51,511 bases of DNA from Candidatus Woesearchaeota archaeon (GCA_016180085.1 JACPBX010000011.1:1-51511); one strand, 5' to 3'; positions 9,910 to 29,445 are shown, counted from the stretch's first letter. Notes: generated from the sequence alone by a model not told the origin. Translations and numbers: made by a program.

Positions 9910-9946
9910 CAAGAAATACGATTGAGAAATGGTCAAAATGTATGGC

Positions 9947-10315: not shown

Positions 10316-10451
10316 AAAATCCCACCAGAAGCCAAGGCTGTCTCTTTGCATATAAAAGTCTTTTGCTTCGCCGCAGGATAAACAAAAACATTAATAAACC
10401 AGTCTCACTCTGGCTTGGTGAGAGGCAGGAATTAAAAAAGGGGTGTAGATT

Positions 10452-10970
10452 TTGAAAAGGGTGCTGGCTGCGCTTGTTGCTGTGCTTGTTCTTGGCATAT
10501 TTGGCTATGCGCTCATAGAAAAAATGCCGTTTGCAGACGCAACGTTATCGGCAGTCTCTGTAATGACAACAACAGGAATTCCGGAGAGCCTGAGCGCGTC
10601 GGGCAAGCTTTTCACGGCAGCTCTCATTATCGCGTCAATCAGCATAGTAGTTGCTGCCTTGGTTAAGTTTTTCAGCCCGCCAGCCGGGGGCGGGGATGAT
10701 ATGCTTACGAACTTTTTTGGCTCTTCTCCACAGGACCAGGGCCTGATTATGAAGGAGGTTAAAGTCAGGAGCGGAAGCTCACTGGCCGGGCTGCAGAAGT
10801 CCCAGATTATCCAAAGGCATGGCGTGGTTGTTGTTGGCGTGAAGCACAAGGGTGGCTTTGACATAAACGCGCCGTTAAGCATGAGGGTAAAAGCAGGCTC
10901 AACAGTGCTCATTCTTGGAACTCCTGCGACGGCAATGGCTGTTGAGAGAAAAAAGAAAGCCGGCAGATAA
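10452..10970 (+). CDS. Two-TM pore-loop channel-like domain fused to a TrkA-C (RCK_C) domain
   Basis: TM1, pore helix (FADATLSAVSVMTTTG), TM2, then EVKVRSGSSLAG..VVVGVK..GSTVLILG. Confidence 0.8.
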   Translation: MKRVLAALVAVLVLGIFGYALIEKMPFADATLSAVSVMTTTGIPESLSASGKLFTAALIIASISIVVAALVKFFSPPAGGGDDMLTNFFGSSPQDQGLIMKEVKVRSGSSLAGLQKSQIIQRHGVVVVGVKHKGGFDINAPLSMRVKAGSTVLILGTPATAMAVERKKKAGR

Positions 10971-10984
10971 AAGGTAGATAAAAG

Positions 10985-13450: not shown

Positions 13451-13507
13451 GAAGCCTAAATTAAGAACTCAGAATAAATATTTTGCCAAACCTTATTGGT
13501 CACCGCG

Positions 13508-13894
13508 CTATTTAACGAACTCTACACCTTCCATGTCTTTAAACTGCATGTCGCCGGTGAGGAATCTGATTCCCTTTTCAACTGCAAAAATGTATCCGAC
13601 ACAATCAACATAACTAAGGTCTCTGCCCTTATTTTGGGCCTTGAACAGCATAGCTCTTTTTATTGTTGCATCGTCGACATAAATGCAAAATTCCTTATAC
13701 CTGTCATAGTAGCGTTCTGCGGCATCAATGCCGGAAGTGACAAGAAGCCGGTAATATAATTCCATAAGATTCAATCTCGTAATGGCAATACCCCTATCGG
13801 TTATGTATGGCGAGTAATTTTTGTTGCCTTTGGCGATTTCAAAAAGGGCGTAGGTATCGTAAAAGAACGCCTTTTCCTCTGCTGCTTTCGCCAT
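13508..13894 (-). CDS. vapC: PIN-domain (VapC) toxin
   Basis: FYDTYALFE, LSYVDC, FLTGD acidic PIN motifs; lies downstream of an AbrB-type gene. Confidence 0.9.
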   Translation of the reverse strand: MAKAAEEKAFFYDTYALFEIAKGNKNYSPYITDRGIAITRLNLMELYYRLLVTSGIDAAERYYDRYKEFCIYVDDATIKRAMLFKAQNKGRDLSYVDCVGYIFAVEKGIRFLTGDMQFKDMEGVEFVK

Positions 13895-13906
13895 GCGTTA
13901 CGCCTC

Positions 13907-14137
13907 TCACGCCTCATCAGAGGAACTCTTCCATCCTTTCCTGGCAAGATTCTTGAATTCCTGGCCGGTCATCTCTGTTTTTAATTTGCCAAAAACGTCT
14001 TCTAAATTTCCCCTTTTGAACACGCTTACCACCATGTCATCGCCTTCCTTAATCCCCTGGCTCTTTACAGTATCCTTTGGGAGTATGATCCCGATTGAGT
14101 TCCCCCATTTTTTTGCAAACACCATTCGCACAATCAC
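13907..14137 (-). CDS. vapB: AbrB/MazE/SpoVT-family antitoxin
   Basis: KKWGNSIGIILPK...IKEGD motif; 76 aa. Confidence 0.9.
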   Translation of the reverse strand: MIVRMVFAKKWGNSIGIILPKDTVKSQGIKEGDDMVVSVFKRGNLEDVFGKLKTEMTGQEFKNLARKGWKSSSDEA

Positions 14138-14160
14138 CGCACCCAGTTTAGTTATACTTT

Positions 14161-14190
14161 AAGTTAACTAAAAGTTAACTCATATATAAA
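14161..14190 (-). promoter_or_regulatory. vapBC promoter with two palindromic operator boxes
   Basis: Minus-strand TTTATATA (14183-14190) followed by AGTTAACT palindromes at 14173-14180 and 14162-14169. Confidence 0.6.
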
Positions 14191-14223
14191 TGTTGCGAAA
14201 CATCGCGCCTGCAATCACCCACA

Positions 14224-14880
14224 TCAGTTATTTGTATTCCTGCGTTGAGCATAAGATTCTATAAAACGCTGAAGGGTGTTGGAGGCTTCTGCGCCGAGCC
14301 TGCCTAAAACATGCTGCAGCGCAGCCTGGCCTGAGCTTAATACATCATCAAGCTCTGACAGCACAAGATATCTTAGCGAGACAACATTTGCCGAAATATT
14401 GCGCCAGGAGCCGTTGCTTGGCGGCACATTGGCGCCTGGTGCGAAAAACACATCCCTCTGACCTGGTGGGGTTTGTACTGTTATCTTAACAGAGTACGGC
14501 TGAGGCTCACATTCCACTTTGGCGCCAAAAAACTCCTGCACTTTTGGTATGTCTGCAACCAGCTGCCGGAAGAACGGAACCAATTGCATAGCCTTTTGCT
14601 TAGCTAGCTGCTCTTCAGCTTCAGAGCGTGGCCTCTGATAGTGCGAAGTCAAGCTTTGCACAGCTCTTTGCTCAGCCGGCTGCCCTTCTACAGCCTTTTC
14701 AAGCCCACTTCCTCCCTCTTCAATATGCTCAAGCGCCCTCTCAGCAGTGTAGTGCATTGCCGCATTTGCCACAACGAACTGTAGCACTTCCGAAGGCACA
14801 GGCGGCTGCCACAGCTTACGATGCGCTTCTGTCAACTCCGTCAATTCTGCTGCCATCTTTAACACTTCCTCTTGCAGCAA
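14224..14880 (-). CDS. Hypothetical protein
   Basis: 218-aa ORF with protein-like composition (start TTG 14880 or ATG 14856); minus-strand TATA-like CTTTAATA at 14897-14904. Confidence 0.65.
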   Translation of the reverse strand: MLQEEVLKMAAELTELTEAHRKLWQPPVPSEVLQFVVANAAMHYTAERALEHIEEGGSGLEKAVEGQPAEQRAVQSLTSHYQRPRSEAEEQLAKQKAMQLVPFFRQLVADIPKVQEFFGAKVECEPQPYSVKITVQTPPGQRDVFFAPGANVPPSNGSWRNISANVVSLRYLVLSELDDVLSSGQAALQHVLGRLGAEASNTLQRFIESYAQRRNTNN

Positions 14881-15201
14881 TACTGTTAGTAAGCTGTATT
14901 AAAGGATTTTTCGGCGGAAAAGCCGCAAATCTTCTCTGCGCCATTGAAAAATTTACGCCAGTGCCGGAAATCTATCAAAAAACCTGCTTATTTTTGAAAA
15001 ATTTCCGAAACAACCGAAAGCTTTTTGCATTGTTTTTGGCGGGGCTTCGGCACGGCCGGGTTAGATGCCTTCCAAGATTATGATCTTTAAGACCATAATC
15101 ACCATCTGTTTCGTATCTTTTATTTATCTTCCATAAGCCCATACGGCTTATTTTCAGAGACATGCAAACCTTAGAAGCTGCTTAGAATAAAAACGCTAAA
15201 G

Positions 15202-15717
15202 TCACTGTTGCTTTATTGTGCAATCCGTCGGGTTTATCCCAACTGCGGCGTATAGGCGTTTAAGGAATCGGTTTATCCGTGCTGCTTCGGTGGGGTCCTC
15301 TTCAGCCTTTGTTAAAGATTGGGGAGTAGTCCAAAAGCTTTTCACAACAGCATCACACCCGCTTGTTGCTTTAAATGGCACAGAATCGTTTGTGCCCTTT
15401 TCCACGTTAAGCACAACAAAACGATATTGGGGTGGGACAACAAGGGCGCCTTTAACTCCGCTCTGCAGAAATTCGACATAATAATAGGGTATTCCATTCA
15501 CTCTAAACTCGAAATCAACTTTAGGCGTATACCCGTCACCGCTAGTTCTTTTTGTTACGCGAACATAATCCTGCTCTACAGTAGCCTCAAGCATTGGCGT
15601 TGGGATATTTGTCAGCTGTGGTGATGGTGCCTGATTTGTGCAGGCAGCAGCCACAGCTAAAGCTAACACTGCAGCTGTTGTTATGTACTTCGGCCTTAAC
15701 ATGGTTCTGATGCTCAT
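15202..15717 (-). CDS. Putative secreted lipoprotein
   Basis: Basic N-region, hydrophobic H-region and lipobox-like AAAC; minus-strand GAAAAGA-TTTATATG promoter at about 15743-15757. Confidence 0.7.
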   Translation of the reverse strand: MSIRTMLRPKYITTAAVLALAVAAACTNQAPSPQLTNIPTPMLEATVEQDYVRVTKRTSGDGYTPKVDFEFRVNGIPYYYVEFLQSGVKGALVVPPQYRFVVLNVEKGTNDSVPFKATSGCDAVVKSFWTTPQSLTKAEEDPTEAARINRFLKRLYAAVGINPTDCTIKQQ

Positions 15718-15802
15718 TGCATCGCAGTGTCATCTTTCTCTACATATAAATCTTTTCATAGTAGTAACAAAAACGTGGTGAAGAATTGATGCAAAAGGGA
15801 TG

Positions 15803-16013: not shown

Positions 16014-16030
16014 CCGAAAAACTTATATAA
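16014..16030 (+). promoter_or_regulatory. Archaeal BRE-TATA promoter of the pilin-like locus
   Basis: CCGAAAA-A-CTTATATAA ending about 22 nt before ATG 16052, consistent with a leaderless mRNA. Confidence 0.6.
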
Positions 16031-16051
16031 GCACCTTCCAATAATTCTCGT

Positions 16052-16210
16052 ATGGCTTTGCCTATTGCTGTGACAGGGAAAAAAGGCACAATCATACTGT
16101 CAAAAGTGCTGATGGCGAGCGTGCTTGTCCTGGCTTCGGCAGTAATACTTTTTCTTGTAATAAGAACAGTCTTGTGCAGGACAGGAGCATGGTCTGGCGG
16201 TGTTTGCTGA
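16052..16210 (+). CDS. 52-aa micro-pilin-like protein (not in the ORF track)
   Basis: MALPIAVTGKKG/TIILSKVLMASVLVLASAVILFLVIRTVLCRTGAWSGGVC; its stop abuts the next ATG. Confidence 0.7.
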   Translation: MALPIAVTGKKGTIILSKVLMASVLVLASAVILFLVIRTVLCRTGAWSGGVC

Positions 16211-17254
16211 ATGTCAAAACAGAAATTGACAGCGCAGGGGAAAAAAGGGCTCACCCAATCGCAGACTGTAGGGATGCTGGCTGTTTTGGGCCTTGGCATC
16301 CTGCTGCTGCAGTTTACCAAGCCGCTTGTATCAGTTGCTAACGCCCAGAGCATTATTGAGGACTGTAAGTTCAGTGTTGGCCTGTCAAGCTGGCAGCTGA
16401 ACTTCAACAACTGGGTTAAGGACATCAACGTCGTAGACAGCCCTTTCAGGCTTAATTGCAAGACAATATTTACAGAAATAACCAAAGAGAGCATAAACCG
16501 GGCAGACGACAAGATAAAGCTGAGTAACGACCCAACCGAAAGGGTTGATCAGCTAAAAGAGGCTATTATGAAAAACATGAGGGAATGCTGGTATATGTAT
16601 GGTGAAGGCAAGGTGAAAATTCAGCAGACAGGGCTTTTCGAGAACGGCGAAACATCGTGCCTTGTTTGCTCGGAGATAGTGCCAAATCAAGAGTTCATAG
16701 ACAAGTTTGGCAACAAGAATCCTCTTGATGCGATGTACACTTACGCTGTAAATTCAAGGATTCCTCCTAAGGACGAAAAAAGTTACATGAATTATTTGCT
16801 TGAAGGCGCTGATCCTAGGCCAACTGGCTATCCTGACAGATCTGTTGTGCTGGACAGGCAGTATTCTGTGGTTTTTGCTGTGCATTCCAAGGAAGACGTT
16901 GATTCTGTGGGCGAAAAGGTTACTAAGAAGGTTTTCGGGTGGGATAGCAAAGCTAATACAAGCGCAGGCATCGTTGACTGCTACGTTGGCGGTGAGGGTA
17001 AGCTTACTGGCGATGAAGCTGAGGAGATTGGCTGTGACAGCAGCGGCAATAATCCTGGCCTGATTTTCGGGAAGGTTGTTGATGGCGGCACGAATGTTGA
17101 GCTGGCAACCTGGAAAAACCTTGTTGTTGGGGTTGCGACCGGAGGGGTTGGCATTTTGATTGGCGGGGATACGTTCAGGCTTAAGACCTACCCGGAGACA
17201 GTTCGCCTTGTTCCCACTGAAAGCCTGGCCAAATACTGCAAACGGCTCTACTAG
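16211..17254 (+). CDS. Class III signal-peptide surface protein (paralog A)
   Basis: KKG/LTQSQ + hydrophobic helix; MRECWYMYGEGK..CLVC. Confidence 0.75.
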   Translation: MSKQKLTAQGKKGLTQSQTVGMLAVLGLGILLLQFTKPLVSVANAQSIIEDCKFSVGLSSWQLNFNNWVKDINVVDSPFRLNCKTIFTEITKESINRADDKIKLSNDPTERVDQLKEAIMKNMRECWYMYGEGKVKIQQTGLFENGETSCLVCSEIVPNQEFIDKFGNKNPLDAMYTYAVNSRIPPKDEKSYMNYLLEGADPRPTGYPDRSVVLDRQYSVVFAVHSKEDVDSVGEKVTKKVFGWDSKANTSAGIVDCYVGGEGKLTGDEAEEIGCDSSGNNPGLIFGKVVDGGTNVELATWKNLVVGVATGGVGILIGGDTFRLKTYPETVRLVPTESLAKYCKRLY

Positions 17255-17265
17255 AACCTACGAGA

Positions 17266-18213
17266 ATGAAGCGCGCATTACATAAAAAAGGTCTTACGAA
17301 CGAAACTATTGTTCTTCTTATTCTTGTGCTGGTGGCTCTTATCTTTTCGGTGTTCCACTTCGGCAAAGGCGTTGGCGAGGCGAGCAACAAGTCTGTGGAG
17401 GTAACGGCATGCAGGGCAAGCGTTGACAGGAATGCCAGGCTGCACATAAACGGCATAGAGTTTCCAACAAGCCTGAACTGCCCGGCGCAGAAGGTGAGGA
17501 TAACAAAGGCTGGCACTGCCGAGGCGCAGGACTCTGCGAAGAAGCTGATAGCTGATGCGATGTACGACTGCTGGTACAAGTACGGCGAGGGAAAACTTAA
17601 CCTTTTCAAGGACGAGGCAACGTTCTGCTCGGTTTGCGCATTCGTCAATATTGAAACAGAGGAGCCTGTTAAGGGCTTGCCAGCTTATCTCATGACCGAG
17701 CAGTCGCCTGACAAAAGCGGGAAGCTTTACTCTGATTACCTTGCAAGCTACAAGACTTCAAAGGCAGAGCAGGTTCTTGGCGCGATAAAGGACACTCCTC
17801 TTCTTGACAGGGCTTCAGGGGCTGAGCTGAAAGGCAAAACCAACTACGCGGTGGTTTTTGTATATGCAAAAGGCAATGATGAGCTGGAAAAGCTGGCAAA
17901 CCACCTGACTGCCCAGACAACAGCAGGCAAGACAGGGCTTATCATAGGCGTTGGGGCTGGCTCGGTTGCCGGAACAACTGCCGCATTGACGCTGGTAAGC
18001 TTTGGAGTTGCCGCAGGCCCTGTCGGCTGGGCTGCTCTCGGAGTTGGTGTTTCAGTCCTGGCTGTTGTTGAGGTTGTTTCATTTTTTGCAAGCCCTGACA
18101 ATGTTCCTGAATGGGCTGCCCTTACCGCATTGAGGGAGTGGAACTCTGCAGAAACCGATAACATACTCAGGGATGACTTTGGCTGCACATATTTCCCGGC
18201 AAAGCTTGAATAG
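17266..18213 (+). CDS. Class III signal-peptide surface protein (paralog B)
   Basis: KKG/LTNE + hydrophobic helix; MYDCWYKYGEGK..CSVC; C-terminal Gly/Ala hydrophobic hairpin. Confidence 0.75.
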   Translation: MKRALHKKGLTNETIVLLILVLVALIFSVFHFGKGVGEASNKSVEVTACRASVDRNARLHINGIEFPTSLNCPAQKVRITKAGTAEAQDSAKKLIADAMYDCWYKYGEGKLNLFKDEATFCSVCAFVNIETEEPVKGLPAYLMTEQSPDKSGKLYSDYLASYKTSKAEQVLGAIKDTPLLDRASGAELKGKTNYAVVFVYAKGNDELEKLANHLTAQTTAGKTGLIIGVGAGSVAGTTAALTLVSFGVAAGPVGWAALGVGVSVLAVVEVVSFFASPDNVPEWAALTALREWNSAETDNILRDDFGCTYFPAKLE

Positions 18214-18291
18214 GAAGGGCTTGGGCGGCAGAGGCAGCGAATAAATATAAATAGCAGCCGTATAGGAAGATAAAAAGAAAAAGGTGTGCAT

Positions 18292-18456
18292 ATGAGTCTT
18301 ACTAGGTTTGGGAAGAAAGGGCAGGAAGCTTCGCCCTGGGGCCATCTTGGAGGCTGGATAATAGCCCTTGCCGTCCTCATCATTTTGGTGGTAGTCATGC
18401 TCTCGGCTTTCGGAATCATTAACCTTGACTTCATAAGGAATGCGAGGTTTGGATAA
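18292..18456 (+). CDS. 54-aa micro-pilin-like protein (not in the ORF track)
   Basis: MSLTRFGKKG/QEASPWGHLGGWIIALAVLIILVVVMLSAFGIINLDFIRNARFG; SD-like AAGGTG upstream; TAATG overlap with the giant gene. Confidence 0.75.
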   Translation: MSLTRFGKKGQEASPWGHLGGWIIALAVLIILVVVMLSAFGIINLDFIRNARFG

Positions 18457-21400
18457 TGCGCACAGGCTTTGGCTCTGGCAAAAGGGGTGCGGGCTGGGGT
18501 TGGCTGCTTGGCGCAGTGCTAATGGCACTTGTCATATTTACTGTTCCTGCTGTAAAAAACATAGCTTACGGTGCTCTTGAAAACACCCTCAAGATTGCCG
18601 GCATTGACATTGGGAATCCCAGGATAGGCGCTTTCTCTGCAAAGCCAGTGGACATAGGCGGTGATGGTAAAATTGAAATGAGGTTTGAATTGTCAGTAGC
18701 CGGCAACAAGGACAGCGCTTATTTGGAGATTTATGAGAGCAAGGCCAGTGATGACAAGACCGCAGCGCAGCTTGAGCCGCCTCCGGCAAAGTTTGGCGAT
18801 GATGACAGGATTTACAGTACCCGGCGAACAGAAGGCAGATTGTCCGAATTGGCTAAGAAAGGGGTTTTTAGTATAAACTGCCCCGGACATGATGAGTGCA
18901 AAGCTTTTGATTACGTGCCTAAGCCCAGGGATGAGTTCAAGCCCGGCCTGTACAGGTTCACTGCTGTTATCAGGAAAGCAAAGGACAACAAGGTTGTGTA
19001 CTCCAAGGATGTTGTTGCTGGGTTTTACGATGAGGAGTATGTTGAGCTTCTTGACAAGCCTGCCGTGGGCTGTCCTGACTGTAACGTTATTGAGTGCAAG
19101 AGAAAGCAGATGGAAACCTTGCTGGAGGAAAAAGACAAGTGCAGTGAAGGCGTTAAGATACTGTACAAGGAGTCTGGGGGAAGGGTTAACGTTGTTGACG
19201 TGAACGGATGCGCCTTCCCAATTGAGCCTGTAAAGCACACTGACCCGCTGACAAACGCAGAGTTCACAGGCTGCTTGGCTTCACAGATAAACCTCATCCA
19301 CTCCCAGACCGTGCTTTCAGCATTCTACAGGATAGCATGTGAGAAGGGAGACGGCATAGGAGCATTGACCGACCTCCCTCTGGCTGAGGACAAGCTTGCC
19401 AAAAAAGGCCTTGGCATAAGCCAGGTAAAGGAGATGGCAAAGGATTTCATGCAGTCCTGCTCAAAGAAGGCGGAAAGTTATCTCAACGGCAAGGGCTGGT
19501 TTAAGGCAGAGACGGCCCAGTCAAGAAGGGCTGCGTATGATGACAAAATAACAAGCTACCTTGATAACAAGGTCATGCCTGGCGTTACAGGCGTAAGCCT
19601 GAACAACGATCAAACCGGCCTTTTGGTCGTCAGCTGGAAAGCCCTGACTGGACAGGCCAAGGTTGGAAAGTTTGTGATAGAGCATGTTGTTACAAAGGCT
19701 ATTGACCCTGAAAGCAAAGAGGTGCAAACCTTTGGCGAGACCTTGGAGAAGCTGCCTAGCGAGCTGACGCCTGCCGTGGATGGCTTCTCTTTTACAATCA
19801 GGCCTGAAAACTCTAACCTTGCGGGCTGGCATGAGTTTATCGTGTCAGCCGTAAGCAAGGATGACCCCGGCTCGAGCTCTGTGAAGAGCTCAAGCGGAAG
19901 GGGCCTTTACAACCTGCGCTTTTTGGAGCTTTACCAGACCCACCCAAAAGGCTGCACTGACGACAAGTGCAACGTCATCAAGAAGAAGAAGGAGATGATC
20001 AAAAGCTCGCCAGGCGCTGACGAGGCTTACATGATTTGGAGTGGCAGGATAAAAAACGCAGGGTGTGTTTACGACGAGAAAAAAGGCATGGACGACTGCC
20101 CTGAGCCGGAAGCAGTTGACATAATGTACAGGGGAATAATCGGGCTCTCGCGTGTTGGTTCTGATTTTGAAAAGGCTGTTGGCATGGAATGTGGTGCCTC
20201 AAACACTCCTGAAGGCAGGGTGTGCTCTGCCAGGAAGGAATTAAAGGCAGAGCTTGAAAAGAGAGGCTGGTTCCAGGTTGTGGTCGAAACTCCGATTGTG
20301 ATAACTCCATCAAATGTCAAGGTTCAGGATTTCAAGGCTGTGGCCAGAGCCGATGGCGGTATTGACGCAGAGTTTGTTGTAAGCGGGAATGTGGCCAAGA
20401 TAAGCGGCTTTGCAGTTGAGCACAGGTTCAACAGGTTCTACCGCGATGACAGCAAGCAGTTTGTCAACCTTCTGCCTATGGAGGTTGCCAAAGACAAGAG
20501 GGAAGTGGTAATTGGACCGTTTGAGGAAAGGTTTGACGGCTATCACAAGTTCAGGCTTAAGGCGGTTGATGATTTGAGCATTGAGCTAAGCTCAAGTGCA
20601 GAAGTCGCTGCCGGTTTTTATACGCAGGGCTATCTTGACTTTTACGATGGCGATGCTGAGAACTGCAAGGGCGATGGCGGCTGCGATGTTGTTGGCAGGA
20701 AGCGGGATTACCTTAAGGAGAAGAGAGATGCTGCGATAGAAGTTTTCGCAAATGACGAGGCAGTTAGGAAAGGCTTGGAATTTTTTGGCTGTAGCATAAA
20801 TGGGCTGGACAGGTGCAGGCCGGAAGGCGTTCAGGCTTTGTTCGCTGCCGTTCTTGGAAAGTTTTACCCGAACACAGACCAGCAGAATGAGCTTTTGACA
20901 AAATGCGAAACAAAAGGGAACCCTTACGTGGATATCTGCAAAGCCAGGAAAAACCTTGAGTCAGCCTTGAAGAGCAACGGCTGGGTTGAAGTTACAAAGC
21001 CAAGAGCAGAAACAAAAGCTGCTTTGCCCACAACAACAGCAGACATCAAGACAGTGCCTGAAAGGCCATTGCCCGGGGAGCTTTTCACCCTGGTTGTGGA
21101 AGCTGCATCTTCCCATGCCATAAGATGGCTTAAGATAGCAGAAGGCAATTCAAAGGAGTGGAAGACTGTGCCTTGTGACTGGCTTAGCAAGACGTGCAAG
21201 CGCGAATGGTCAAGGCTTTACTTTGACCCAAACCCTGTCCCTATAAGAATAGCTGTGGTTGATGCGACCGAGCGTGTTTCTGAGCTTGAGCCTTTTACGC
21301 CAAGTGTTGCCTGGAGCTGCCTTGGCTCAAAAAAGGCTGGTGAAAAATGGGTTGGGTGCAAAACAAACGACCAGGAGGAAGTGCTTTACGAGTGCAACAG

Positions 21401-24400
21401 CGACGGTAGCTTTACAACGCATATTCCCGAGAAAGAGGAAGATAGAAAGCCGTCATCTTTCCTTTGCGGGGGAATAGTTGATTATGGCCAGGCAGAAACA
21501 GGAAGCCAGGGAAACTGCATCTACACATGTAAGTTTGATGCTGAGTGCAGCGCTGTTGGAGGCTCAATAGCTCCCTTTGAGTGCCCTGGCAAAAACACAG
21601 GCATGAGAGGTGTTGAGCTTAAGCAAGTGTGCTGCGAGGTTGGAGCACCGCAAGAGGTAAACCCGAAAACTGTTGGCGTCCTTTCAATCATTACAAACAT
21701 CATGAACGAGAACCTGATAGCGAACTCTGTTGGCGGTTTTTTCTTCGTTTTTGACCTCATCAACCCGGTTAAAATGTTCACGGAAAGCGAGAAAAGTAGG
21801 CAAAGGCAGGATTTGCTGGACATCATGTTAAAGCTTCAGGCTGATGCTGAGCAGGGCACTTCCCTCAGCAGCGTTGTTGGCGCAATGGGCACTTTGAAAA
21901 AGGACGAAAAAGAGAGGAAGAAGTATCTTGACCAGAAATACCAAAGCATCAGCAACCAGTTTTACAGCTACGCGGCAAAGCTGGAGATTGATGCAGGCAG
22001 CGACAACAAGGCCAAACGCGATAGGGCAAGGGCAACATTGGCAGAGCTGAACCCGGTTATTGCCAACTTTAACCTCTACACCCTTCCTCAGCGGGAGTTT
22101 GACGAGCTGGCTATTCGGCACAGCACTGATCCCCTTGTGCTTCAGATAGCAAGGTATGACGCCCTCACCTGGCTTGACGACGACAGGCAGTTTGAGGCTC
22201 TTGATGACATTTACTTCGAGGTTGGGAAAAGCCTGGAAAAAACAAAGGATGAAGGTATGGCTGTTGAGATGTATAACCTTGTGCTGGAAAACTTCCGCGA
22301 GTCTGAGCATGCGCAGGAGTCGAGGGACAGGATAGAACTCCTTCAATCATTTCGCCACAAGGCTGGAACCTTGACTCAGAGCCTCGCGATAGACATATTC
22401 GGAGACCCTACGTTTTACGTGTTTGGCGGTCCAAAAGCTTTGATAAAGGGCGGCCTTACCGCTGTGAGGGTTTTGTCAAAAACTCCGCAAATTGCAGCTC
22501 AGACAGCAAAGCAAGCCGGCAAGGTTTCAGAGCCCCTCCTGAGGGAAGCTCTTGCAAGCTCTGGCGTGAAGAGCAGGGAGATTCTGGAAAAAGCCCCGGG
22601 CATGCTTGTGAGGTCTGGAGGCAAGGTCAGCCAGGAGCTTGTGGAATTGCTTGCAAATGTTCCAAGAGTGATAAAGTCCAGGATGATAAAAACCGTTGTG
22701 GACCGGGAAGGCAGGGTATTTTTTGAAACTACGGCGCTTAAGGGCGGCCAGAAGATAAGGGTGCCTTACCTGGAGAGCTTCAAAACCGCCCTGGCTGTCA
22801 GCTCAGATAAGCTCGGCGAGTTCAAAAAAGCGTATAGGGATTTAATGATTGAGAAAGGCCATCTTTTTGGCAATCCCAACGACCAGAAGCTGGCAATAAG
22901 GCTCCTGCAGAGCGGCTTGGACAAGGATGAAGTAGTTAAGGTCCTTACAAAGGCTGACAAGATTGCTGATGACTATGATCTTCTGACAAAAGTGGTGAAC
23001 AACTTCATGGAGCCCGAGTTCGGCATTACGCAGCCAAGGCTGGTGAGAATGATTTTGGCTGCTAAAGCAACCCCGGCCTCGGTAGAGGATGCCCTGTCCA
23101 TAAAGAGGGCTGCAACCGAGGTCATACTTAAGAATCTGGGCAACAACAGGAACAGGTTCCTTGTCGCCAAAACCCCGGGAGGCCAGGACGTCAAAGTGGC
23201 CCTAAACCGCCAACTGATGAAAGGCGACTTAGCTGGGGAAGTTGAAAAGGCCGGAAGCAAGTACGCTGAAGTCATGAGCAAGTATCCAAATCTGTTGGAC
23301 AATGCCGATGACCAGAAGAGGGTTTTGGACCTTGTCCAGGCTCCTGATTTGGGTGCGGATGACATAGGGCATCTTATCACCCGTAGGGCGAACGCCGACT
23401 CTGCCATAAAGCAGGGCTTCCTTGACAGCTATGTGAAGAAGATTGCACCCACGCTTGACAGGATTAACGACGCTGACGAGATACTGAAAGCCCAGGACTT
23501 TACAGATGCCATAAGGAAGGCGAGAATAGACAGGGCCAAGGTGCTAAAGCAGGCAAACAAGCGCTTCAGGGGAATCGACATTGACATCAAAATGAATGAG
23601 CTGCTTCAGCAAAAGCTAGCCGAGGCTGCTCTTAGAAGCGGAAGGGCAGCGAAAATAGAAGGGGCCATAAGCGGGGACTCTGCTGACTTGTCAAAAACCT
23701 TTTACGGGGCATTCGGGCCAATGGCAGAAGGCAGGGGAGCCGTGGTTGTTCCTGAGCATGTCCCAACATTTTTCAACAGGCTTGTCGCCATTAAAAACAG
23801 TATTTCAGACTTCGCCATAAGTTCTGAGATTATGGCTGGAGTTGCTTCCGAGGAGGCCAAGCTGGTTGTAAAAACACTGCATGCCCATGCCATTGAATAC
23901 GGGGCGCCTGTCGTGAAGCTTGCCAGGGAAAAGGGCTTAAGGCCCCTCAATGCCATTGTTTCGTTTGATATTTCAAAAGCCAGCATGCTCAGCCCTGCCA
24001 AGTTTGCCGAGCTTGACGAAGTTGCAGGAGTTGTTGTGCCTGTGATTGCGCAGGCCCCTGACGGCACAGACGAGCTTGCCTTTGTGGTCTTTGAAAATGG
24101 CGCCATACCTGCAGAAGTCCTGCCACAGACCGACCTGTTATTTCTCCCTGACGGCTCTGCGCCGTACTGCGCATATTACGATGTGGTTGTTGAATGCACT
24201 CTTGACGATGAAGTTTCGAGAAGCGCCATGCCGACCGCTGTTTTCGGCAATAATCTGGAGAAGCAGGTGCTGATAAGCCTGAACATGCGCAACCTTGAGG
24301 GTTTTGAAACTACGAAAGATGACTGGCTTAAGGACAACATTGCTCCTTTGGCTGCAAACGTTGAGGTTAATGATGAAGCGCTTAGTGATGCTGAGGCGGA

Positions 24401-24593
24401 CGCTGCGCTCACAGAAAAGGCTGATGAGCTGCTCGGCAAGGCAGGCACTGCTTACGACACTTCAAAGCAGCTCAGGGCTAATGGCTTGAGCGATGTGGAG
24501 GTTCAGCAGTTCCTTGTTTCGGCAAAAGACTTATCAGCTTTCAATGACTTGAAAGATGTTCCTGTTGAAAGCCTGAGGGTGAGGTTAGGATGA
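18456..24593 (+). CDS. Giant 2045-aa class III signal-peptide surface protein with three internal repeats
   Basis: KRG/AGWGWLL + TM; three beta-sandwich + Cys-rich repeats; Cys-rich module; TPR-like segment; helical C-terminal half. Confidence 0.8.
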   Translation: MRTGFGSGKRGAGWGWLLGAVLMALVIFTVPAVKNIAYGALENTLKIAGIDIGNPRIGAFSAKPVDIGGDGKIEMRFELSVAGNKDSAYLEIYESKASDDKTAAQLEPPPAKFGDDDRIYSTRRTEGRLSELAKKGVFSINCPGHDECKAFDYVPKPRDEFKPGLYRFTAVIRKAKDNKVVYSKDVVAGFYDEEYVELLDKPAVGCPDCNVIECKRKQMETLLEEKDKCSEGVKILYKESGGRVNVVDVNGCAFPIEPVKHTDPLTNAEFTGCLASQINLIHSQTVLSAFYRIACEKGDGIGALTDLPLAEDKLAKKGLGISQVKEMAKDFMQSCSKKAESYLNGKGWFKAETAQSRRAAYDDKITSYLDNKVMPGVTGVSLNNDQTGLLVVSWKALTGQAKVGKFVIEHVVTKAIDPESKEVQTFGETLEKLPSELTPAVDGFSFTIRPENSNLAGWHEFIVSAVSKDDPGSSSVKSSSGRGLYNLRFLELYQTHPKGCTDDKCNVIKKKKEMIKSSPGADEAYMIWSGRIKNAGCVYDEKKGMDDCPEPEAVDIMYRGIIGLSRVGSDFEKAVGMECGASNTPEGRVCSARKELKAELEKRGWFQVVVETPIVITPSNVKVQDFKAVARADGGIDAEFVVSGNVAKISGFAVEHRFNRFYRDDSKQFVNLLPMEVAKDKREVVIGPFEERFDGYHKFRLKAVDDLSIELSSSAEVAAGFYTQGYLDFYDGDAENCKGDGGCDVVGRKRDYLKEKRDAAIEVFANDEAVRKGLEFFGCSINGLDRCRPEGVQALFAAVLGKFYPNTDQQNELLTKCETKGNPYVDICKARKNLESALKSNGWVEVTKPRAETKAALPTTTADIKTVPERPLPGELFTLVVEAASSHAIRWLKIAEGNSKEWKTVPCDWLSKTCKREWSRLYFDPNPVPIRIAVVDATERVSELEPFTPSVAWSCLGSKKAGEKWVGCKTNDQEEVLYECNSDGSFTTHIPEKEEDRKPSSFLCGGIVDYGQAETGSQGNCIYTCKFDAECSAVGGSIAPFECPGKNTGMRGVELKQVCCEVGAPQEVNPKTVGVLSIITNIMNENLIANSVGGFFFVFDLINPVKMFTESEKSRQRQDLLDIMLKLQADAEQGTSLSSVVGAMGTLKKDEKERKKYLDQKYQSISNQFYSYAAKLEIDAGSDNKAKRDRARATLAELNPVIANFNLYTLPQREFDELAIRHSTDPLVLQIARYDALTWLDDDRQFEALDDIYFEVGKSLEKTKDEGMAVEMYNLVLENFRESEHAQESRDRIELLQSFRHKAGTLTQSLAIDIFGDPTFYVFGGPKALIKGGLTAVRVLSKTPQIAAQTAKQAGKVSEPLLREALASSGVKSREILEKAPGMLVRSGGKVSQELVELLANVPRVIKSRMIKTVVDREGRVFFETTALKGGQKIRVPYLESFKTALAVSSDKLGEFKKAYRDLMIEKGHLFGNPNDQKLAIRLLQSGLDKDEVVKVLTKADKIADDYDLLTKVVNNFMEPEFGITQPRLVRMILAAKATPASVEDALSIKRAATEVILKNLGNNRNRFLVAKTPGGQDVKVALNRQLMKGDLAGEVEKAGSKYAEVMSKYPNLLDNADDQKRVLDLVQAPDLGADDIGHLITRRANADSAIKQGFLDSYVKKIAPTLDRINDADEILKAQDFTDAIRKARIDRAKVLKQANKRFRGIDIDIKMNELLQQKLAEAALRSGRAAKIEGAISGDSADLSKTFYGAFGPMAEGRGAVVVPEHVPTFFNRLVAIKNSISDFAISSEIMAGVASEEAKLVVKTLHAHAIEYGAPVVKLAREKGLRPLNAIVSFDISKASMLSPAKFAELDEVAGVVVPVIAQAPDGTDELAFVVFENGAIPAEVLPQTDLLFLPDGSAPYCAYYDVVVECTLDDEVSRSAMPTAVFGNNLEKQVLISLNMRNLEGFETTKDDWLKDNIAPLAANVEVNDEALSDAEADAALTEKADELLGKAGTAYDTSKQLRANGLSDVEVQQFLVSAKDLSAFNDLKDVPVESLRVRLG

Positions 24594-25345
24594 TATACGA
24601 CAGCGGTATTGAAGGCAGTTCTGCCGGTTCGCCTGGCAATCGAAGCGCAAAAGCTTTTCTGGCTGCTGCCGGCATAGTAATAGGGGTTGCTGTTGTCGTG
24701 GCTGCACTTTTCATAATATTTCAGCCTGAAGAAAAAACAATAAAGCTACCGGCTGTTGAAGAAGCCCAGCTGGTTTTTACCTCGCCAACTGACGCCGAGC
24801 AGCAAGCTATTGTAAGAAGCCTTGTTGGCTATGACTGGGCTGTGCTCCTGAACACTCCCCTTGATGACAAAAGGGCCGTGCTTGCAGTGCCTTACCTTGC
24901 AAGTTTGGAACTGGAAACTGCCATTGCGCAGCACAATCTTCTCGACAACTCAGCCAGGTATGTTGGAGCTGGGGCAGTCCAGCTTGTGAAGAATGACTCC
25001 GGCCTTAGGGGCATTTTGGAAAGCCTTGCAGCCATAGAGGATGAGTACTACCGCCTTGGGCTGCCTTCAGGGGTTGTGCATGCCGAAAGGCTCAGGCACC
25101 TTGCCAAAATGCTTGAAGTGTACGGCCCGCCTGCTGGAGAAATAAGGGATTCTGAAACCAGGCAGTTTGCCCAGGACCATCTCGGATTTTCTGTTGACTC
25201 GTACGAGGCGTGGTATACACTTATAAGTATAAGATACGGCAGTTTAATTAAAAACATTGAAAAAACAAAAGACAAAAAGTCTATACTTACTGTTAAGGAA
25301 TATCTGGGAGGAAATCCCCAGAGAAAGGAAGTTTTGACAAGGTGA
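24590..25345 (+). CDS. Single-pass membrane-anchored hypothetical protein
   Basis: One N-terminal TM (FLAAAGIVIGVAVVVAALFIIF); ATGA overlap with the upstream stop. Confidence 0.7.
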   Translation: MIYDSGIEGSSAGSPGNRSAKAFLAAAGIVIGVAVVVAALFIIFQPEEKTIKLPAVEEAQLVFTSPTDAEQQAIVRSLVGYDWAVLLNTPLDDKRAVLAVPYLASLELETAIAQHNLLDNSARYVGAGAVQLVKNDSGLRGILESLAAIEDEYYRLGLPSGVVHAERLRHLAKMLEVYGPPAGEIRDSETRQFAQDHLGFSVDSYEAWYTLISIRYGSLIKNIEKTKDKKSILTVKEYLGGNPQRKEVLTR

Positions 25346-25351
25346 TAAAGC

Positions 25352-25654
25352 ATGGCCGGAAGCGAAAGGAGTGGAAGAAGAAGAGGTTCAAAGAGTGCAG
25401 CAGCTTTGTCGCTGGAAACAATCGCGGTTGCGGCAATAATACTTGTTGTCCTGATAATTGTCCTAGCAATCTTCACAGGAGGGTTTAACAAAGTCAGGTT
25501 TCAGATAGGGAAGGTCAATAATTGTGAGCCTGAAAATGAATGCGTTGAACCAGATGGAACATGCAATGCCGGTGAAAAGATATACGGCCTCGGCTGTGAG
25601 GAAAAATATCCGGGGACAAAAACCTACTGCTGCAAGAAGCAGCCGGATGTCTAG
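25352..25654 (+). CDS. Pilin-like protein with Cys-rich C-terminus (candidate major pilin)
   Basis: Basic leader then ALSLETIAVAAIILVVLIIVLAIF; 6 Cys in the C-terminal half. Confidence 0.72.
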   Translation: MAGSERSGRRRGSKSAAALSLETIAVAAIILVVLIIVLAIFTGGFNKVRFQIGKVNNCEPENECVEPDGTCNAGEKIYGLGCEEKYPGTKTYCCKKQPDV

Positions 25655-26291
25655 TGGAAGGATTGGCGGAATGGGAAGAATGCGGAAAAATAAGAGAGGT
25701 GCGGCACCCACTAGCCTGCTTATGGCCATAGGCTATGCTTTGGGTTTTATCCTGTTTGTTCTAATTCTGCAGATTGCAGGTGGTAAAGTGGGGCTGACTA
25801 TAGGAGGCACGGCTGAGGCAGCTACTGCCATTGACAGGGGCTTTGCCGACCTTACTAAGAAGGCGGAGGAGCTTGAGGACAGTAAGCCGCCGGTTGACTT
25901 TGCCCTGACCGTTGACAAGGACTTTTTCCTGGTAAGCTTCAACAAAGCTCCCGACGTAAAAAACGGCAATGCCGTAAGCCCGCCTGAATGTAACGGTGTA
26001 TCATGCCTTTGCGTTTGCATTGATGACAAGTGCGAGGACATTGACGTCCAAAAGAACAGGGGCAGGGACTGCAGGCCGATATACCAGTATAATGCAATAA
26101 TAGCTGAAGGGGATGACAGCTTTAAATGCAATGATGGCAGCGAGTGCAACAGGGGAGGTAAGCATACAAGCTATAAGTACGTTGATGAGTCAGGCAGTGT
26201 GTCGGATGGCTACTACTTTTACATTAAGGGCGAGAAAACGTTTTCTGCAAAGATTCGGAAAAGCAGCAGCAACCTTTACATAGGGCAGTAA
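25647..26291 (+). CDS. Class III signal-peptide, Cys-rich protein
   Basis: Start probably 25647 or slightly later; KNKRG/AAPTS + TM; CNGVSCLCVC motif. Confidence 0.72.
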   Translation: MSSGRIGGMGRMRKNKRGAAPTSLLMAIGYALGFILFVLILQIAGGKVGLTIGGTAEAATAIDRGFADLTKKAEELEDSKPPVDFALTVDKDFFLVSFNKAPDVKNGNAVSPPECNGVSCLCVCIDDKCEDIDVQKNRGRDCRPIYQYNAIIAEGDDSFKCNDGSECNRGGKHTSYKYVDESGSVSDGYYFYIKGEKTFSAKIRKSSSNLYIGQ

Positions 26292-26342
26292 ACCCTGCCA
26301 TACTTTACCGCAACTAATTTAAATGCCTGTGCAGATTATCCG

Positions 26343-26825
26343 TTGTTGATGCGGAAGCTTGTGCTGGGAAAAAGAGGGGCTGAAGCGACAACAGTCGAGG
26401 TGTGGTTTGTCGTTATCGGGCTGATACTTGCCGCGCTGGTAACCACCGGCCTTTTGAAAAAGACAGTTGACGACATCAAAGGAAAAACCCTGGAGAAGAA
26501 CTACATTGCCAGGGACATTGCCCTTGCGCTGGACGCTGTTTACGCCGCCCCCGGCGATGTGGAGTACACCTATTCCCTCAAGAAATATAAATTTGTCGTT
26601 GAGATAAAAGACTCCAAGGTTTTTGTCAAGGACTCTCTGGGAGAGAAAGACGCTACCGCCGGCATTTACGATTATTTCGGGGACCCTGACAGTAAGCTGA
26701 GCGTGAGGATAACGCCTCTGCCCGACGACCCTAGGCCAATGCTGGTTACGTTAGGCAACAGGAATGATGTTTTGCTTGTAAAAGCCGAGAATGCGTTTTT
26801 GGAAGAAGATGTGGCATTTACCTGA
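26343..26825 (+). CDS. Class III signal-peptide (minor pilin-like) protein
   Basis: GKRG/AEATTVEVWF + TM; YIARDIALALDAVYAAPG. Confidence 0.75.
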   Translation: MLMRKLVLGKRGAEATTVEVWFVVIGLILAALVTTGLLKKTVDDIKGKTLEKNYIARDIALALDAVYAAPGDVEYTYSLKKYKFVVEIKDSKVFVKDSLGEKDATAGIYDYFGDPDSKLSVRITPLPDDPRPMLVTLGNRNDVLLVKAENAFLEEDVAFT

Positions 26826-27387
26826 CAGTCTGGTTTATTTGGCTCTGCTGGCAAGGAGCAAGAGAGGCCTCGCCATATCAGACAAGATGCTGCTGTGGAT
26901 TCCAAGGTTTATTTTTACAGTGATAGTTGTCGGGCTGACTTTTTACATCATACTTTCGTTTATAATCACTAAAACAAACGTTTCCGAGGCAGAGTCAAAC
27001 ATACTTACGGACGTTGCTTACTATTCCGGTGATGGCTTCTCTTTTGTTGATAAGGATACGAACAGGGTTTATGCCGGTGTTATAGACGGGTCAAAGTTCA
27101 GCGACGCCCAGCTTGGAGCGCTGCTTAGCAATGACAAGCCGTTGCTTGTTGGCAGGTTTGTAAGGCGGCAGACTATTATTGATTACCTTTTGCATCCCCA
27201 AACAGATGCGGTAGCTTACACCGATAAAGCAAGGTATGGGCAGTGGCAGCCCATAGCGCAGCTGAAAGGGGAAGGCGAGGGAGGCAAGACGCCTTATTCA
27301 GAGGTCAGGTATGTTGCCGTGCGCAATCCGGCAACAGGCAATTCAAAAGGAGCGGTGGTCGAAACCGTTTTCATAGCTTCGAACTGA
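26791..27387 (+). CDS. Class III signal-peptide (minor pilin-like) protein
   Basis: SKRG/LAISDKML + TM. Confidence 0.72.
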   Translation: MRFWKKMWHLPDSLVYLALLARSKRGLAISDKMLLWIPRFIFTVIVVGLTFYIILSFIITKTNVSEAESNILTDVAYYSGDGFSFVDKDTNRVYAGVIDGSKFSDAQLGALLSNDKPLLVGRFVRRQTIIDYLLHPQTDAVAYTDKARYGQWQPIAQLKGEGEGGKTPYSEVRYVAVRNPATGNSKGAVVETVFIASN

Positions 27388-27397
27388 GGATGGAAAG

Positions 27398-28192
27398 ATG
27401 GTAATGTTCAGGGCAATGCTAAAAAGCAGGAAAGGGCTGGACTTTTGGGACATTTTCTTTTACCTGTTCTATTTTCTGGTAGCTTTCATAATAATATTTC
27501 TGCTTAACATTGCAGGATGCGTGATTAAGGATAAGGAAGCCAGGGCTGGAATCGGCGCTGACGTCAGCCTCGCGGCAGTCATAAGGGCTGACGCGCAGCT
27601 TGACAGCTATTTGAGGACACAGATGCCTGGCAAAGAAGAGCTGCTTGAAAAGATGGGCTGGGTGGAGAAGAATAAAAACGCGAAATACATCAAGGGCCTT
27701 GTCAAAGAGATTGACTTCAACTTTGGAAAGGTCGAGGATTTTCTCAACAAGCATCCTGAGGTTTACTCTGACAGGGACTACTCAGGCTTCATAAGCGGCC
27801 TGCACCCCTTTTACGTCTCCGGAAGCAAAAAGGACAAGGAAGATTCTGAAAGGGTTTTCAAGGCCGTAACTGCGGTTATGTTCATCAGGGCTGTGATTGA
27901 TTACCCGAAAAAGGGCGATTACATGTTCTATCTTTTGCCTTTGGGCGTTGATTTTGGCCCTTCTGACCTGAAACCGAGCAGTAAGGAAGACATGTGCAAA
28001 TCATCCTACGAATTGTGCGCGCAATACCTCCCTCCGGAAGTTGTTCCCAGCCTGAAAGACCCTTTAATCTATGTCTCGCCAGTAAGGTTTTCAAGCCAGG
28101 CCATCCAGATTATTCCTCTGGCAGACGCAACACTGGCAAAGGTTGAGTTCAGGTATTATCCGGAGTTTAAATCGAGGCTGCCGCAGCCGTGA
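27398..28192 (+). CDS. Class III signal-peptide (minor pilin-like) protein
   Basis: SRKG/LDFWDIFF + TM. Confidence 0.72.
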   Translation: MVMFRAMLKSRKGLDFWDIFFYLFYFLVAFIIIFLLNIAGCVIKDKEARAGIGADVSLAAVIRADAQLDSYLRTQMPGKEELLEKMGWVEKNKNAKYIKGLVKEIDFNFGKVEDFLNKHPEVYSDRDYSGFISGLHPFYVSGSKKDKEDSERVFKAVTAVMFIRAVIDYPKKGDYMFYLLPLGVDFGPSDLKPSSKEDMCKSSYELCAQYLPPEVVPSLKDPLIYVSPVRFSSQAIQIIPLADATLAKVEFRYYPEFKSRLPQP

Positions 28193-28201
28193 GGTAAGGT
28201 T

Positions 28202-29368
28202 ATGACCACGCCAACAAAGCCGATGAAGCTGTTATCAGGAAACAAGCGGGGGATGGATTATTACGTTTTTATAGTCTCGCTTGTTGGCGTGCTTATGCTC
28301 AGCTTCATAACATTCAGCCTTTTCACCAAGCAATACAGCCTTAGCTCAGGGCTTTCTACCGGCACAGAGCAGTTCAGGGTGCTGAAAACATACGCCGCAG
28401 CCGAAAAAGCCCTGCTCTTCGCTGACGATGCTGCAAGGCTGGCTTTGGAGCAGGCTGCTTACAAGTACGGGAAAAGCGGGTTTTACTATTCGGGTGCCCC
28501 ATGCGGCAGCAATGGCGGCTACAACTATTGGGCAAAGGATGAAATTCTCCAGAAGAATGACTGCGTGCCTCAGCCAGCGAATCCTTCCGGGTGCTATCCT
28601 GACGAGCCCATGATGAAGTGGACTCTTTCAACTTTTTTCTACTACGATTTCTACAAATTCGTTTCAAAATTCAATAGCATCAGCGAGGTTAAGATTCCTT
28701 TTAATTACGAACCGTTCGGCGTAGCGACAGGCAGCACACAGATTATTGGCATATCGAAAGACCCAATAACAATAAGCATTCCTAACGTTAAGTACGAAGT
28801 CAAGCCGGGCTTCAGGGAAAGCATAAACCGGGATCTAATTGGCGATGGCAGTTCTGTTGTTGCGGTTGCCAAGCAGCTTGCCGGTAAAAGCGAGAAGGAG
28901 GCAAAGAAAATAGTTTCTTCAGCTGATAGCAGTGATGCAGGCAGCCTTGATTGGAATGAAAAGTTTGCCTACAGCAAGGCAAAAAATTCCTGCCTTTACG
29001 CCATTGGCTCATGCACATGCTGCGAAACCATTGAAACGTGCGAGGAGTATGAGTTTGACGAAGAAGGCAACCCTGTCCTGGATGATGATGGAAAAATTAT
29101 TTGCAAGAAAAAAGGCACTTCAGAGGTTCCTGTAGGTGATGGCACAGAATACAGGACAATACCTTACGACAGCTTTGACATCCCGATGAGCGTCAGGGTC
29201 AACGACCCTGCTTCAGGCACAAGCCATAAGCAGTATTTAGTTTATGATGAGGCAGCAAAAAAGGAGGTGCTGAAAGAGCTCGAGTACAACTTCGCAGTAA
29301 ACTGGATAGAGGACCACCCCGAAGACTCAACAACCTCCTGCTCCTGCGGCACAGGACATCCATGCTGA
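28202..29368 (+). CDS. Class III signal-peptide, Cys-rich surface protein
   Basis: NKRG/MDYY + TM; several Cys clusters; acidic loop EFDEEGNPVLDDDG. Confidence 0.72.
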   Translation: MTTPTKPMKLLSGNKRGMDYYVFIVSLVGVLMLSFITFSLFTKQYSLSSGLSTGTEQFRVLKTYAAAEKALLFADDAARLALEQAAYKYGKSGFYYSGAPCGSNGGYNYWAKDEILQKNDCVPQPANPSGCYPDEPMMKWTLSTFFYYDFYKFVSKFNSISEVKIPFNYEPFGVATGSTQIIGISKDPITISIPNVKYEVKPGFRESINRDLIGDGSSVVAVAKQLAGKSEKEAKKIVSSADSSDAGSLDWNEKFAYSKAKNSCLYAIGSCTCCETIETCEEYEFDEEGNPVLDDDGKIICKKKGTSEVPVGDGTEYRTIPYDSFDIPMSVRVNDPASGTSHKQYLVYDEAAKKEVLKELEYNFAVNWIEDHPEDSTTSCSCGTGHPC

Positions 29369-29389: not shown

Positions 29390-29445
29390 AGTCAACTCTT
29401 GTCAGGAAAGTTGACTTTATCAGTCAACAACAAACTATTTATATT
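29390..29445 (+). promoter_or_regulatory. rpa promoter with three alternating AGTCAAC/AGTTGACT boxes
   Basis: AGTCAACT 29390-29397, AGTTGACT 29409-29416, AGTCAACA 29422-29429, then TTTATATT 29438-29445. Confidence 0.45.

Follow-up and report, generated by a model that had tools for sequence, protein, structure and literature searches.

The 51,511-nt stretch of DNA analyzed here, from a Candidatus Woesearchaeota archaeon (GCA_016180085.1 JACPBX010000011.1:1-51511; hereafter, the window), carries a cluster of twelve genes, g01 to g12, that we interpret as the subunit operon of a divergent cell surface machine resembling type IV filament (T4F) systems and conserved across the class; we put the probability of this reading at about 0.6. 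The source is a tiny groundwater archaeon, and the window corresponds to contig C42 of its 1.0-Mb assembly, which has 45 contigs and is 82.8% complete. The class, which holds Woesearchaeota and Pacearchaeota, was sampled as 301 genomes, 204 of them of high quality. To our knowledge, no member of either group has been cultivated.

The twelve open reading frames (ORFs) are packed on the plus strand between positions 16052 and 29368 and encode proteins of 52 to 2,045 amino acids (aa), with intergenic gaps of -35 to +72 bp, such that neighboring genes abut or overlap. A preliminary description of this DNA had proposed a packed run of leader-bearing, same-strand genes with products of 52 to 2,045 aa, many of them rich in Cys, and both points were confirmed by the ORF coordinates, the N termini, and the Cys counts. 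Ten of the twelve proteins start with a short leader that ends in [KR][KR]G and is followed by a hydrophobic helix; the leader ends in KSA in g07 and in AKA in g06, likewise ahead of a hydrophobic helix. The numbers of Cys residues from g01 to g12 are 2, 8, 6, 0, 36, 0, 6, 8, 0, 0, 3, and 12. The residues are concentrated in g02, g03, g05, g07, g08, and g12, and many of them are invariant in orthologue alignments. The genes are as follows.

g01, 16052-16210, plus strand: 52 aa; KKG leader, one helix, and a CxxxxxxxxxC tail; orthologues in genomes G006 and G008.
g02, 16211-17254, plus strand: 347 aa; KKG leader, Cys-rich ectodomain, and C-terminal Gly-rich hydrophobic segment.
g03, 17266-18213, plus strand: 315 aa; KKG leader and six conserved Cys; the signature family of the cluster.
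g04, 18286-18456, plus strand: 56 aa; leader KKG followed by Q after the putative cut; ATGA overlap with g05, indicating translational coupling.
g05, 18456-24593, plus strand: 2,045 aa; KRG leader and single N-terminal anchor; a hypervariable slot.
g06, 24590-25345, plus strand: 251 aa; AKA leader and N-terminal anchor, with [KR]A ahead of the helix in 4 of 4 orthologues.
g07, 25352-25654, plus strand: 100 aa; KSA (K-S/K-A leader) and a 6-Cys C-terminal knot; 1 to 3 copies in relatives.
g08, ~25671-26291, plus strand: ~206 aa; KRG leader and 8 Cys; start chosen by orthologue alignment.
g09, 26349-26825, plus strand: 158 aa; KRG leader and 0 Cys; conserved class-wide (alignment A3).
g10, 26791-27387, plus strand: 198 aa; KRG leader (alignment A2).
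g11, 27398-28192, plus strand: 264 aa; RKG leader, with QFG following the Gly in most orthologues (G|QFG).
g12, 28202-29368, plus strand: 388 aa; KRG leader and 12 Cys at conserved positions (alignment A4).

The leader motif is uncommon in this genome and is concentrated at T4F loci. When 1,162 greedy ORFs were scanned for its strict form ([KR][KR]G plus a hydrophobic stretch), 31 (2.7%) matched, including 10 in the cluster, 7 beside two canonical type IV pilus loci, and 1 upstream of a third assembly ATPase; thus, 18 of the 31 lie in the cluster or beside T4F ATPase/platform genes. Among ORFs with an N-terminal anchor, 31 of 257 carry the motif, and the chance of finding it in 10 of 12 neighboring genes is ~1e-14. 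Orthologues agree on the consensus N(-4) K(-3) K/R(-2) G/A(-1), which is present in 156 of 177 sequences, and judged by motif 11 to 12 of the 12 cluster genes encode a class III signal. Gln is the commonest residue at +1 (35 of 156 leaders) and is concentrated in g04, g07, and g09 to g11, and the only invariant N-terminal columns in the g03 alignment are K7 and G9. The preliminary description had called these leaders class III signal peptides. That claim stands as far as the conserved Lys and Gly residues and the presence of the same motif on pilin-like genes of the canonical loci are concerned, but most of the cluster leaders do not match the strict FlaFind pattern from +1 to +4. Likewise, PF04021 and PF07790, the models for the N terminus of archaeal pilins, found no cluster protein, matching only genes on contigs C35 and C29, below threshold. 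Given this misfit and the missing Pfam matches, "class III-like" is the accurate term for leaders that appear to behave like class III signals.

Profile searches detected no T2SSE, T2SSF, or A24 gene in the window, and none is linked to the subunit genes on their contig; the preliminary description was correct in reporting that an ATPase, a platform, and a peptidase are lacking there. The search that it had suggested in the remainder of the genome recovered all three components, so that the lack of a peptidase or ATPase, which it had named as grounds for rejecting its reading, was not borne out. A single A24 prepilin peptidase is encoded on contig C17 (PF01478 match at C17:130-510, 51.6 bits); it is 294 aa long, has ~6 to 7 hydrophobic segments, and retains both Asp motifs (AIND and GGGD), and an A24 peptidase is found in 198 of the 204 high-quality class genomes. 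The genome has three T2SSE assembly ATPases, located on C35, C29 (intein-split), and C7 (767 aa; ATPase767). The canonical loci on C29 and C35 each combine a T2SSE ATPase with two T2SSF (PF00482) genes and adjacent pilin-like genes of their own. The C29 ATPase gene (L040, 5416-8462) contains a LAGLIDADG intein, so that two ORFs are read, one of 382 aa and then one of 622 aa with a PilB3_C domain at its end. The C7 locus is of a different kind.

Divergent pair, contig C7 (L041, 2531-7115), minus strand: ATPase767, then a 742-aa polytopic protein.

The closest solved relatives of ATPase767 in PDB are A. fulgidus GspE (8.7e-30), CpaF (6e-20), and FlaI (1.7e-14), and the protein bears an N-terminal extension of ~300 aa. 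Its 742-aa partner has ~9 to 10 transmembrane segments and no Pfam match in this genome, yet homologues at 38 to 61% identity occur in 293 of 301 class genomes (203 of 204 of high quality), annotated as "hypothetical" in all sources. When compared with the T2SSF proteins of this genome by hhalign, it scored a probability of 78.7% (E of 1.7e-5), and its nearest ESM Atlas clusters are GspF/T2SSF. Sub-threshold T2SSF Pfam matches were seen for its homologues in four relatives, and in G049 the homologue has two weak T2SSF stretches. Judged by these similarities, the 742-aa protein looks like an unrecognized T2SSF-type platform family.

Comparison with relatives ties this pair to the cluster. In G193, G286, G248, and G334, an ATPase767-like gene is followed by a 742-like gene, a g03-like gene, and the remainder of the cluster, uninterrupted, and the peptidase lies within the same 20 kb at several of these loci. 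The preliminary description had found no machinery in the window, and such a lack is not an inherent property of the locus: in other families, the genes of the divergent ATPase and platform directly adjoin the cluster. Distances between 742-aa and g03 homologues were obtained by comparing the coordinates of both: the two are no more than 7 kb apart in at least 59 genomes, all of other families, and directly adjacent in 24 of these. In at least 27 genomes, 2.6 to 14 kb separate the peptidase gene from the g03 homologue. Within the order of the present genome, cluster and pair are apart: the distance is 24 kb in G332 and 65 to 190 kb in G049, G230, and G040, and here the two are on separate contigs. 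The scattered appearance could thus be explained by the splitting of an ancestrally contiguous locus, and separation of the motor genes from the subunit operon in this lineage would be the simplest account of these arrangements. Scoring canonical T2SSF as PF00482 at an E value of ≤1e-5, we found five genomes of ≥97% completeness in which the cluster and the peptidase are present and the divergent pair provides the only T2SSF-like platform. In several genomes of the order at this level of completeness, the cluster and the peptidase are kept while canonical T2SSF is lacking altogether, and the divergent pair is their sole candidate motor. Dependence of the cluster on canonical T2SSF platforms was also considered and was rejected, as several genomes of ≥97% completeness keep the cluster without any PF00482 match. 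Correlating presence and absence of the cluster with those of the peptidase or the 742-aa protein was uninformative because both are nearly universal.

The cluster is itself widespread. Eight genomes of the genus and family keep the full g01-to-g12 order followed by the same three housekeeping genes; in these genomes the cluster proteins are 24 to 75% identical, compared to 72 to 92% for the neighboring RPA-like protein. A g03 profile matched 137 of the 301 class genomes (128 of the 204 of high quality), in 100 of 177 genera. In 15 distant genomes we found the same module, made up of g02/g03, a mini-protein resembling g04, a Cys-rich protein that varies, g07 in one to three copies, g08, g09, g10, and g11-like and g12-like proteins, with MNKKG-type leaders nearly throughout. 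The locus is a module conserved class-wide and not peculiar to this organism, which changes the picture drawn in the preliminary description. The g06 protein was seen within the family only. In databases, the nearest proteins belong to metagenome-assembled genomes of Candidatus Woesearchaeota and Nanoarchaeota, and every one of them is named "hypothetical protein."

Several individual subunits bear on what the machine might look like. The small proteins g01 and g04 are, respectively, a candidate Flp/EpdE-like small subunit and a candidate small filament subunit; homologues of ~50 aa occupy the g04 position in distant genomes. An all-against-all hhalign comparison of the twelve families identified g02 and g03 as the sole paralogue pair (probability of 99.5%), and the remaining likeness is confined to leader and helix. 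Pilin families typically share leader and helix alone. The Gly/Ala-rich hydrophobic segment of g03 (approximately residues 220 to 275) is conserved even among distant homologues (alignments A1 and A5), and the segments of this kind in g02 and g03 suggest, as a simpler explanation than the host-directed, membrane-inserting subunits proposed in the preliminary description, subunits that remain in the membrane of the cell itself.

The preliminary description had also drawn attention to a giant protein in the set, as a possible adhesin/effector, and g05 is indeed a giant, variable surface protein; a role as effector would be conjectural. Of its 36 Cys residues, 34 fall within residues 142 to 1060; self-BLAST detected no internal repeats, and searches of Pfam, NCBIfam, and PDB returned no match and those of the ESM Atlas no usable one. 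It is present at full length in just three relatives (59%, 42%, and ~40% identity). In other relatives, the slot holds proteins of 321 to 1,139 aa that have only the N-terminal region in common with it, such that orthologues range overall from 321 to 2,090 aa and from 24 to 59% identity. The protein contains no N-X-S/T sequon, compared to 8.2 expected, and zero was reached in none of 2,000 shuffles; nine g05 orthologues taken together (L027, L029, L031, and L033 to L038) contain 3 sequons compared to ~47 expected. The genome as a whole is sequon enriched (1.49-fold), and other giant ORFs are enriched two- to threefold. This avoidance suggests selection to keep the surface giant g05 unglycosylated.

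Other large proteins were noted in passing. Elsewhere in the same genome, an ORF of 10,656 aa has 491 N-X-S/T sequons (214 expected) and 74 Cys, and another of 994 aa has 128 Cys and zero sequons. In some relatives, expansion to a Cys-rich giant (694 to 1,338 aa) has affected the g12-family protein instead of the g05 slot, so that the role of giant shifts position within the cluster. Examples are as follows.

g12-family giant, L063 (G273:C3), 11786-15802: 1,338 aa.
g12-family giant, L055 (G049:C1), 9451-11535: 694 aa.

Searches by family and by fold placed the cluster proteins in no described group. Ten of them were tested, without any significant Pfam or NCBIfam match, and none of those tested gave a Pfam match to the Flp or TadE family domains. 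PDB sequence and profile searches with alignments A1, A2, A4, and A6 and with g05 were empty. The AlphaFold (AF2) model of g10, with a predicted local distance difference test (pLDDT) score of 86, shows a long helix at the N terminus and, after it, a compact alpha/beta domain whose best structural neighbors are PDC/Cache-like sensor domains, at a Z score (6.5) too weak to name the fold. For the g03 model (AF2; pLDDT of 70.7), there was no structural neighbor above a Z score of 4. Foldseek and VIA searches with both models listed no pilin, a result that by itself is not evidence against a pilin fold.

A number of observations weigh against the interpretation of the cluster as the subunit set of a T4F-like machine. 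No cluster protein matches a curated pilin family in Pfam or NCBIfam, and neither the g10 nor the g03 model matches a solved pilin fold. The departure of most leaders from the FlaFind pattern belongs here as well, and in g04 and g10 the hydrophobic stretch begins 12 to 14 residues past the putative cut. Their extra hydrophobic segments would make g02 and g03 difficult to extract into a fiber, and the cluster contains no obvious abundant major pilin. The T2SSF homology of the 742-aa protein is moderate only. The proposed motor is on another contig in this genome, so the pairing of motor and subunits rests on relatives.

Balanced against the leader motif, the class-wide module, and the linkage in relatives, these points leave us with the following working model. 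One leaderless-type transcript would give rise to the twelve proteins, and their N-K-K-G leaders would be cut by the single A24 peptidase encoded on C17. An assembly ATPase together with a polytopic platform would then draw the freed hydrophobic N-terminal helices out of the membrane and stack them, the likeliest motor being the C7 pair of ATPase767 and the 742-aa T2SSF-like protein, as the conserved adjacency in other families suggests. In such a machine, g01 and g04 (~50 aa) could form an Flp/EpdE-like fiber core, g07 to g12 could be minor-pilin-like subunits that serve in initiation, at the tip, or as adaptors, and g02 and g03, with their extra Gly/Ala-rich segment, could make up a base kept in the membrane. 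The hypervariable, disulfide-rich, sequon-free g05 would be displayed as a specificity-determining adhesin.

Among the other explanations, the one that accounts best for the same data is a non-filament surface complex, anchored in the manner of a pseudopilus or of the Sulfolobus bindosome, in which class III-type N termini would oligomerize and hold large ectodomains (those of g05, g12, and g02/g03) at the membrane or S-layer as a short stalk or patch, with the peptidase and the ATPase and platform still in use. Such a complex would fit subunits that are mostly sizeable, unrelated globular domains with nothing but the N terminus in common, the class-wide retention of the extra membrane-type segments in g02 and g03, and the lack of a clear major pilin, and class III signals on Sulfolobus sugar-binding proteins provide a precedent (PMC13705601). 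However, two Flp/EpdE-sized subunits of ~50 aa, g01 and g04, occupy fixed positions, as expected of fiber-forming pilins, and pili-like appendages have been reported on ultrasmall groundwater cells, without gene assignment (PMC7906910); on balance, we regard the anchored complex as rather unlikely. That the cluster instead supplies accessory or minor pilins to the canonical type IV pilus (T4P) machine on C29 or C35, with the C7 pair uninvolved, seems to us very improbable. Both canonical loci are indeed present, and each comprises an ATPase plus two T2SSF genes, and a 2026 survey reports DPANN pilins scattered away from ATPase and platform genes (PMC13705601), but these loci already own adjacent pilin-like genes, near-complete relatives keep the cluster without canonical T2SSF, and in other families it is with the divergent pair, and not with the canonical loci, that the cluster is contiguous. 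Least probable of all is that the twelve products are plain, uncleaved signal-anchor (type II) membrane proteins with no T4F link, their basic residues reflecting the positive-inside rule: the lack of a pilin family or fold match and the deviation from the FlaFind pattern would agree with this, but a charge bias would not account for the invariance of Gly/Ala at -1 and the conservation of N-K-K-G, only a minority of anchored ORFs carries the motif, most of them at T4F loci, and the cluster is physically linked to peptidase, ATPase, and platform in relatives.

Read as a T4F-like subunit operon, the locus can be compared with several known systems. It resembles the Epd pilus locus of Methanococcus maripaludis (archaeal T4F "system 1," or Makarova clade 1) in being an operon of many distinct class III-signal proteins, in including very small core pilin candidates without a globular domain, in the frequency of Gln at +1 after the cut site, and in the association with a dedicated peptidase, which in relatives of the present locus is often encoded nearby. 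It differs in that the cluster proteins have no detectable relationship to curated pilin models, in that the platform probably consists of one 742-aa protein rather than the products of two TadC genes, and in the ~300-aa extension of the ATPase; moreover, the cluster holds Cys-rich proteins, membrane-hairpin members, and a giant variable protein, and the locus is split in this order. With the bacterial Tad/Flp pilus (CpaF, TadB/C, Flp, and TadE/F), the shared features are a CpaF-like ATPase (6e-20), candidate core subunits of ~50 aa, larger pseudopilin-like proteins, and an A24-type peptidase. The context here is archaeal, with a single membrane and without a secretin, there are no Flp or TadE matches, and a giant adhesin candidate lies inside the subunit operon, so that the likeness comes down to subunit size and the CpaF-like ATPase. 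The row of four to six pilin-like proteins together with one large, non-repetitive adhesin candidate recalls the minor-pilin/PilY1 priming complex of type IVa pili and suggests a tip or priming complex; however, no homology was detected to that complex, g05 has a pilin-like N terminus of its own, and its length varies sixfold among close relatives. In the Sulfolobus bindosome (Bas system), too, class III signals are found on large globular proteins of the cell surface, which require an ATPase and a platform of the T4F type, whereas the present locus has no substrate-binding protein domains and no adjacent ATP-binding cassette (ABC) transporter.

Unannotated signal-peptide proteins beside T4P (FlaI/TadC-type) genes in some DPANN genomes were argued by Makarova, Wolf, and Koonin in 2019 to be diverse pilins (PMC6393860, Fig. 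2A). The logic applied to those "dark-matter" pilin islands is the same as ours; as described in that text, they serve as a general example, which does not extend to the protein families found here, to a module conserved class-wide, to the unannotated 742-aa platform, or to a split locus. The 2026 survey, performed with MacSyFinder2, describes DPANN loci as "unordered," with ATPase and platform adjacent and pilins scattered, attributes pilins of the Epd-like kind to many DPANN genomes, and does not settle whether these loci function (PMC13705601). The imaging of pili-like appendages mentioned above, in which no genes were assigned, is that of He et al. (2021), which appears to be the source study of related genomes (PMC7906910). 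What the present analysis adds is the family content of this lineage, the class-wide module, and the apparent ancestral contiguity with a divergent ATPase and an unannotated T2SSF-like platform, together with the separation of the locus into two parts in this order, the subunits with membrane hairpins, and the sequon-free, hypervariable giant. Twelve unannotated conserved families are thereby tied to a specific divergent ATPase/platform pair and to a prepilin peptidase, and g05 is singled out as a candidate host-specificity factor. The cluster products may form a filament and make contact with a host, as the preliminary description had proposed, and the cluster is a good candidate for the means by which these cells hold on to others. 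More speculatively, nearly every member of the class may carry an unannotated T4F-like organelle, with the 742-aa platform and its ATPase as motor and the cluster as subunit set, that serves as the host contact device of Woesearchaeota and Pacearchaeota, with the giant as the host range determinant, left unglycosylated because it is threaded or extracted by the machine; we consider this broader proposal possible but tentative.

The sequence immediately around the cluster was examined for promoter elements and for signs of mobility. Two elements were read from the sequence.

BRE/TATA-like promoter element (gaaaaacttatataag), 16017..16032, plus strand: ~22 bp upstream of the g01 ATG.
BRE/TATA-like box (TATA-like), 29433-29445: precedes the downstream RPA-like gene.

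These B recognition element (BRE)/TATA-like boxes lie 22 to 30 bp ahead of the ATGs of g01 and of the RPA-like gene and thus flank the operon on both sides. Both are consistent with leaderless transcripts, and the g01 box implies, as far as the sequence can indicate, a leaderless or short-leader operon transcript. With a promoter-like box of its own before g01 and another before the next gene, the twelve genes look like one transcription unit. The flanking genes are housekeeping genes that encode an RPA-like OB-fold protein, YdjM, and RadA, and base composition is even across the region. An origin of the cluster as a mobile island was rejected on the basis of this uniform GC content, the housekeeping flanks, and the conserved chromosomal position; the locus is part of the core chromosome.

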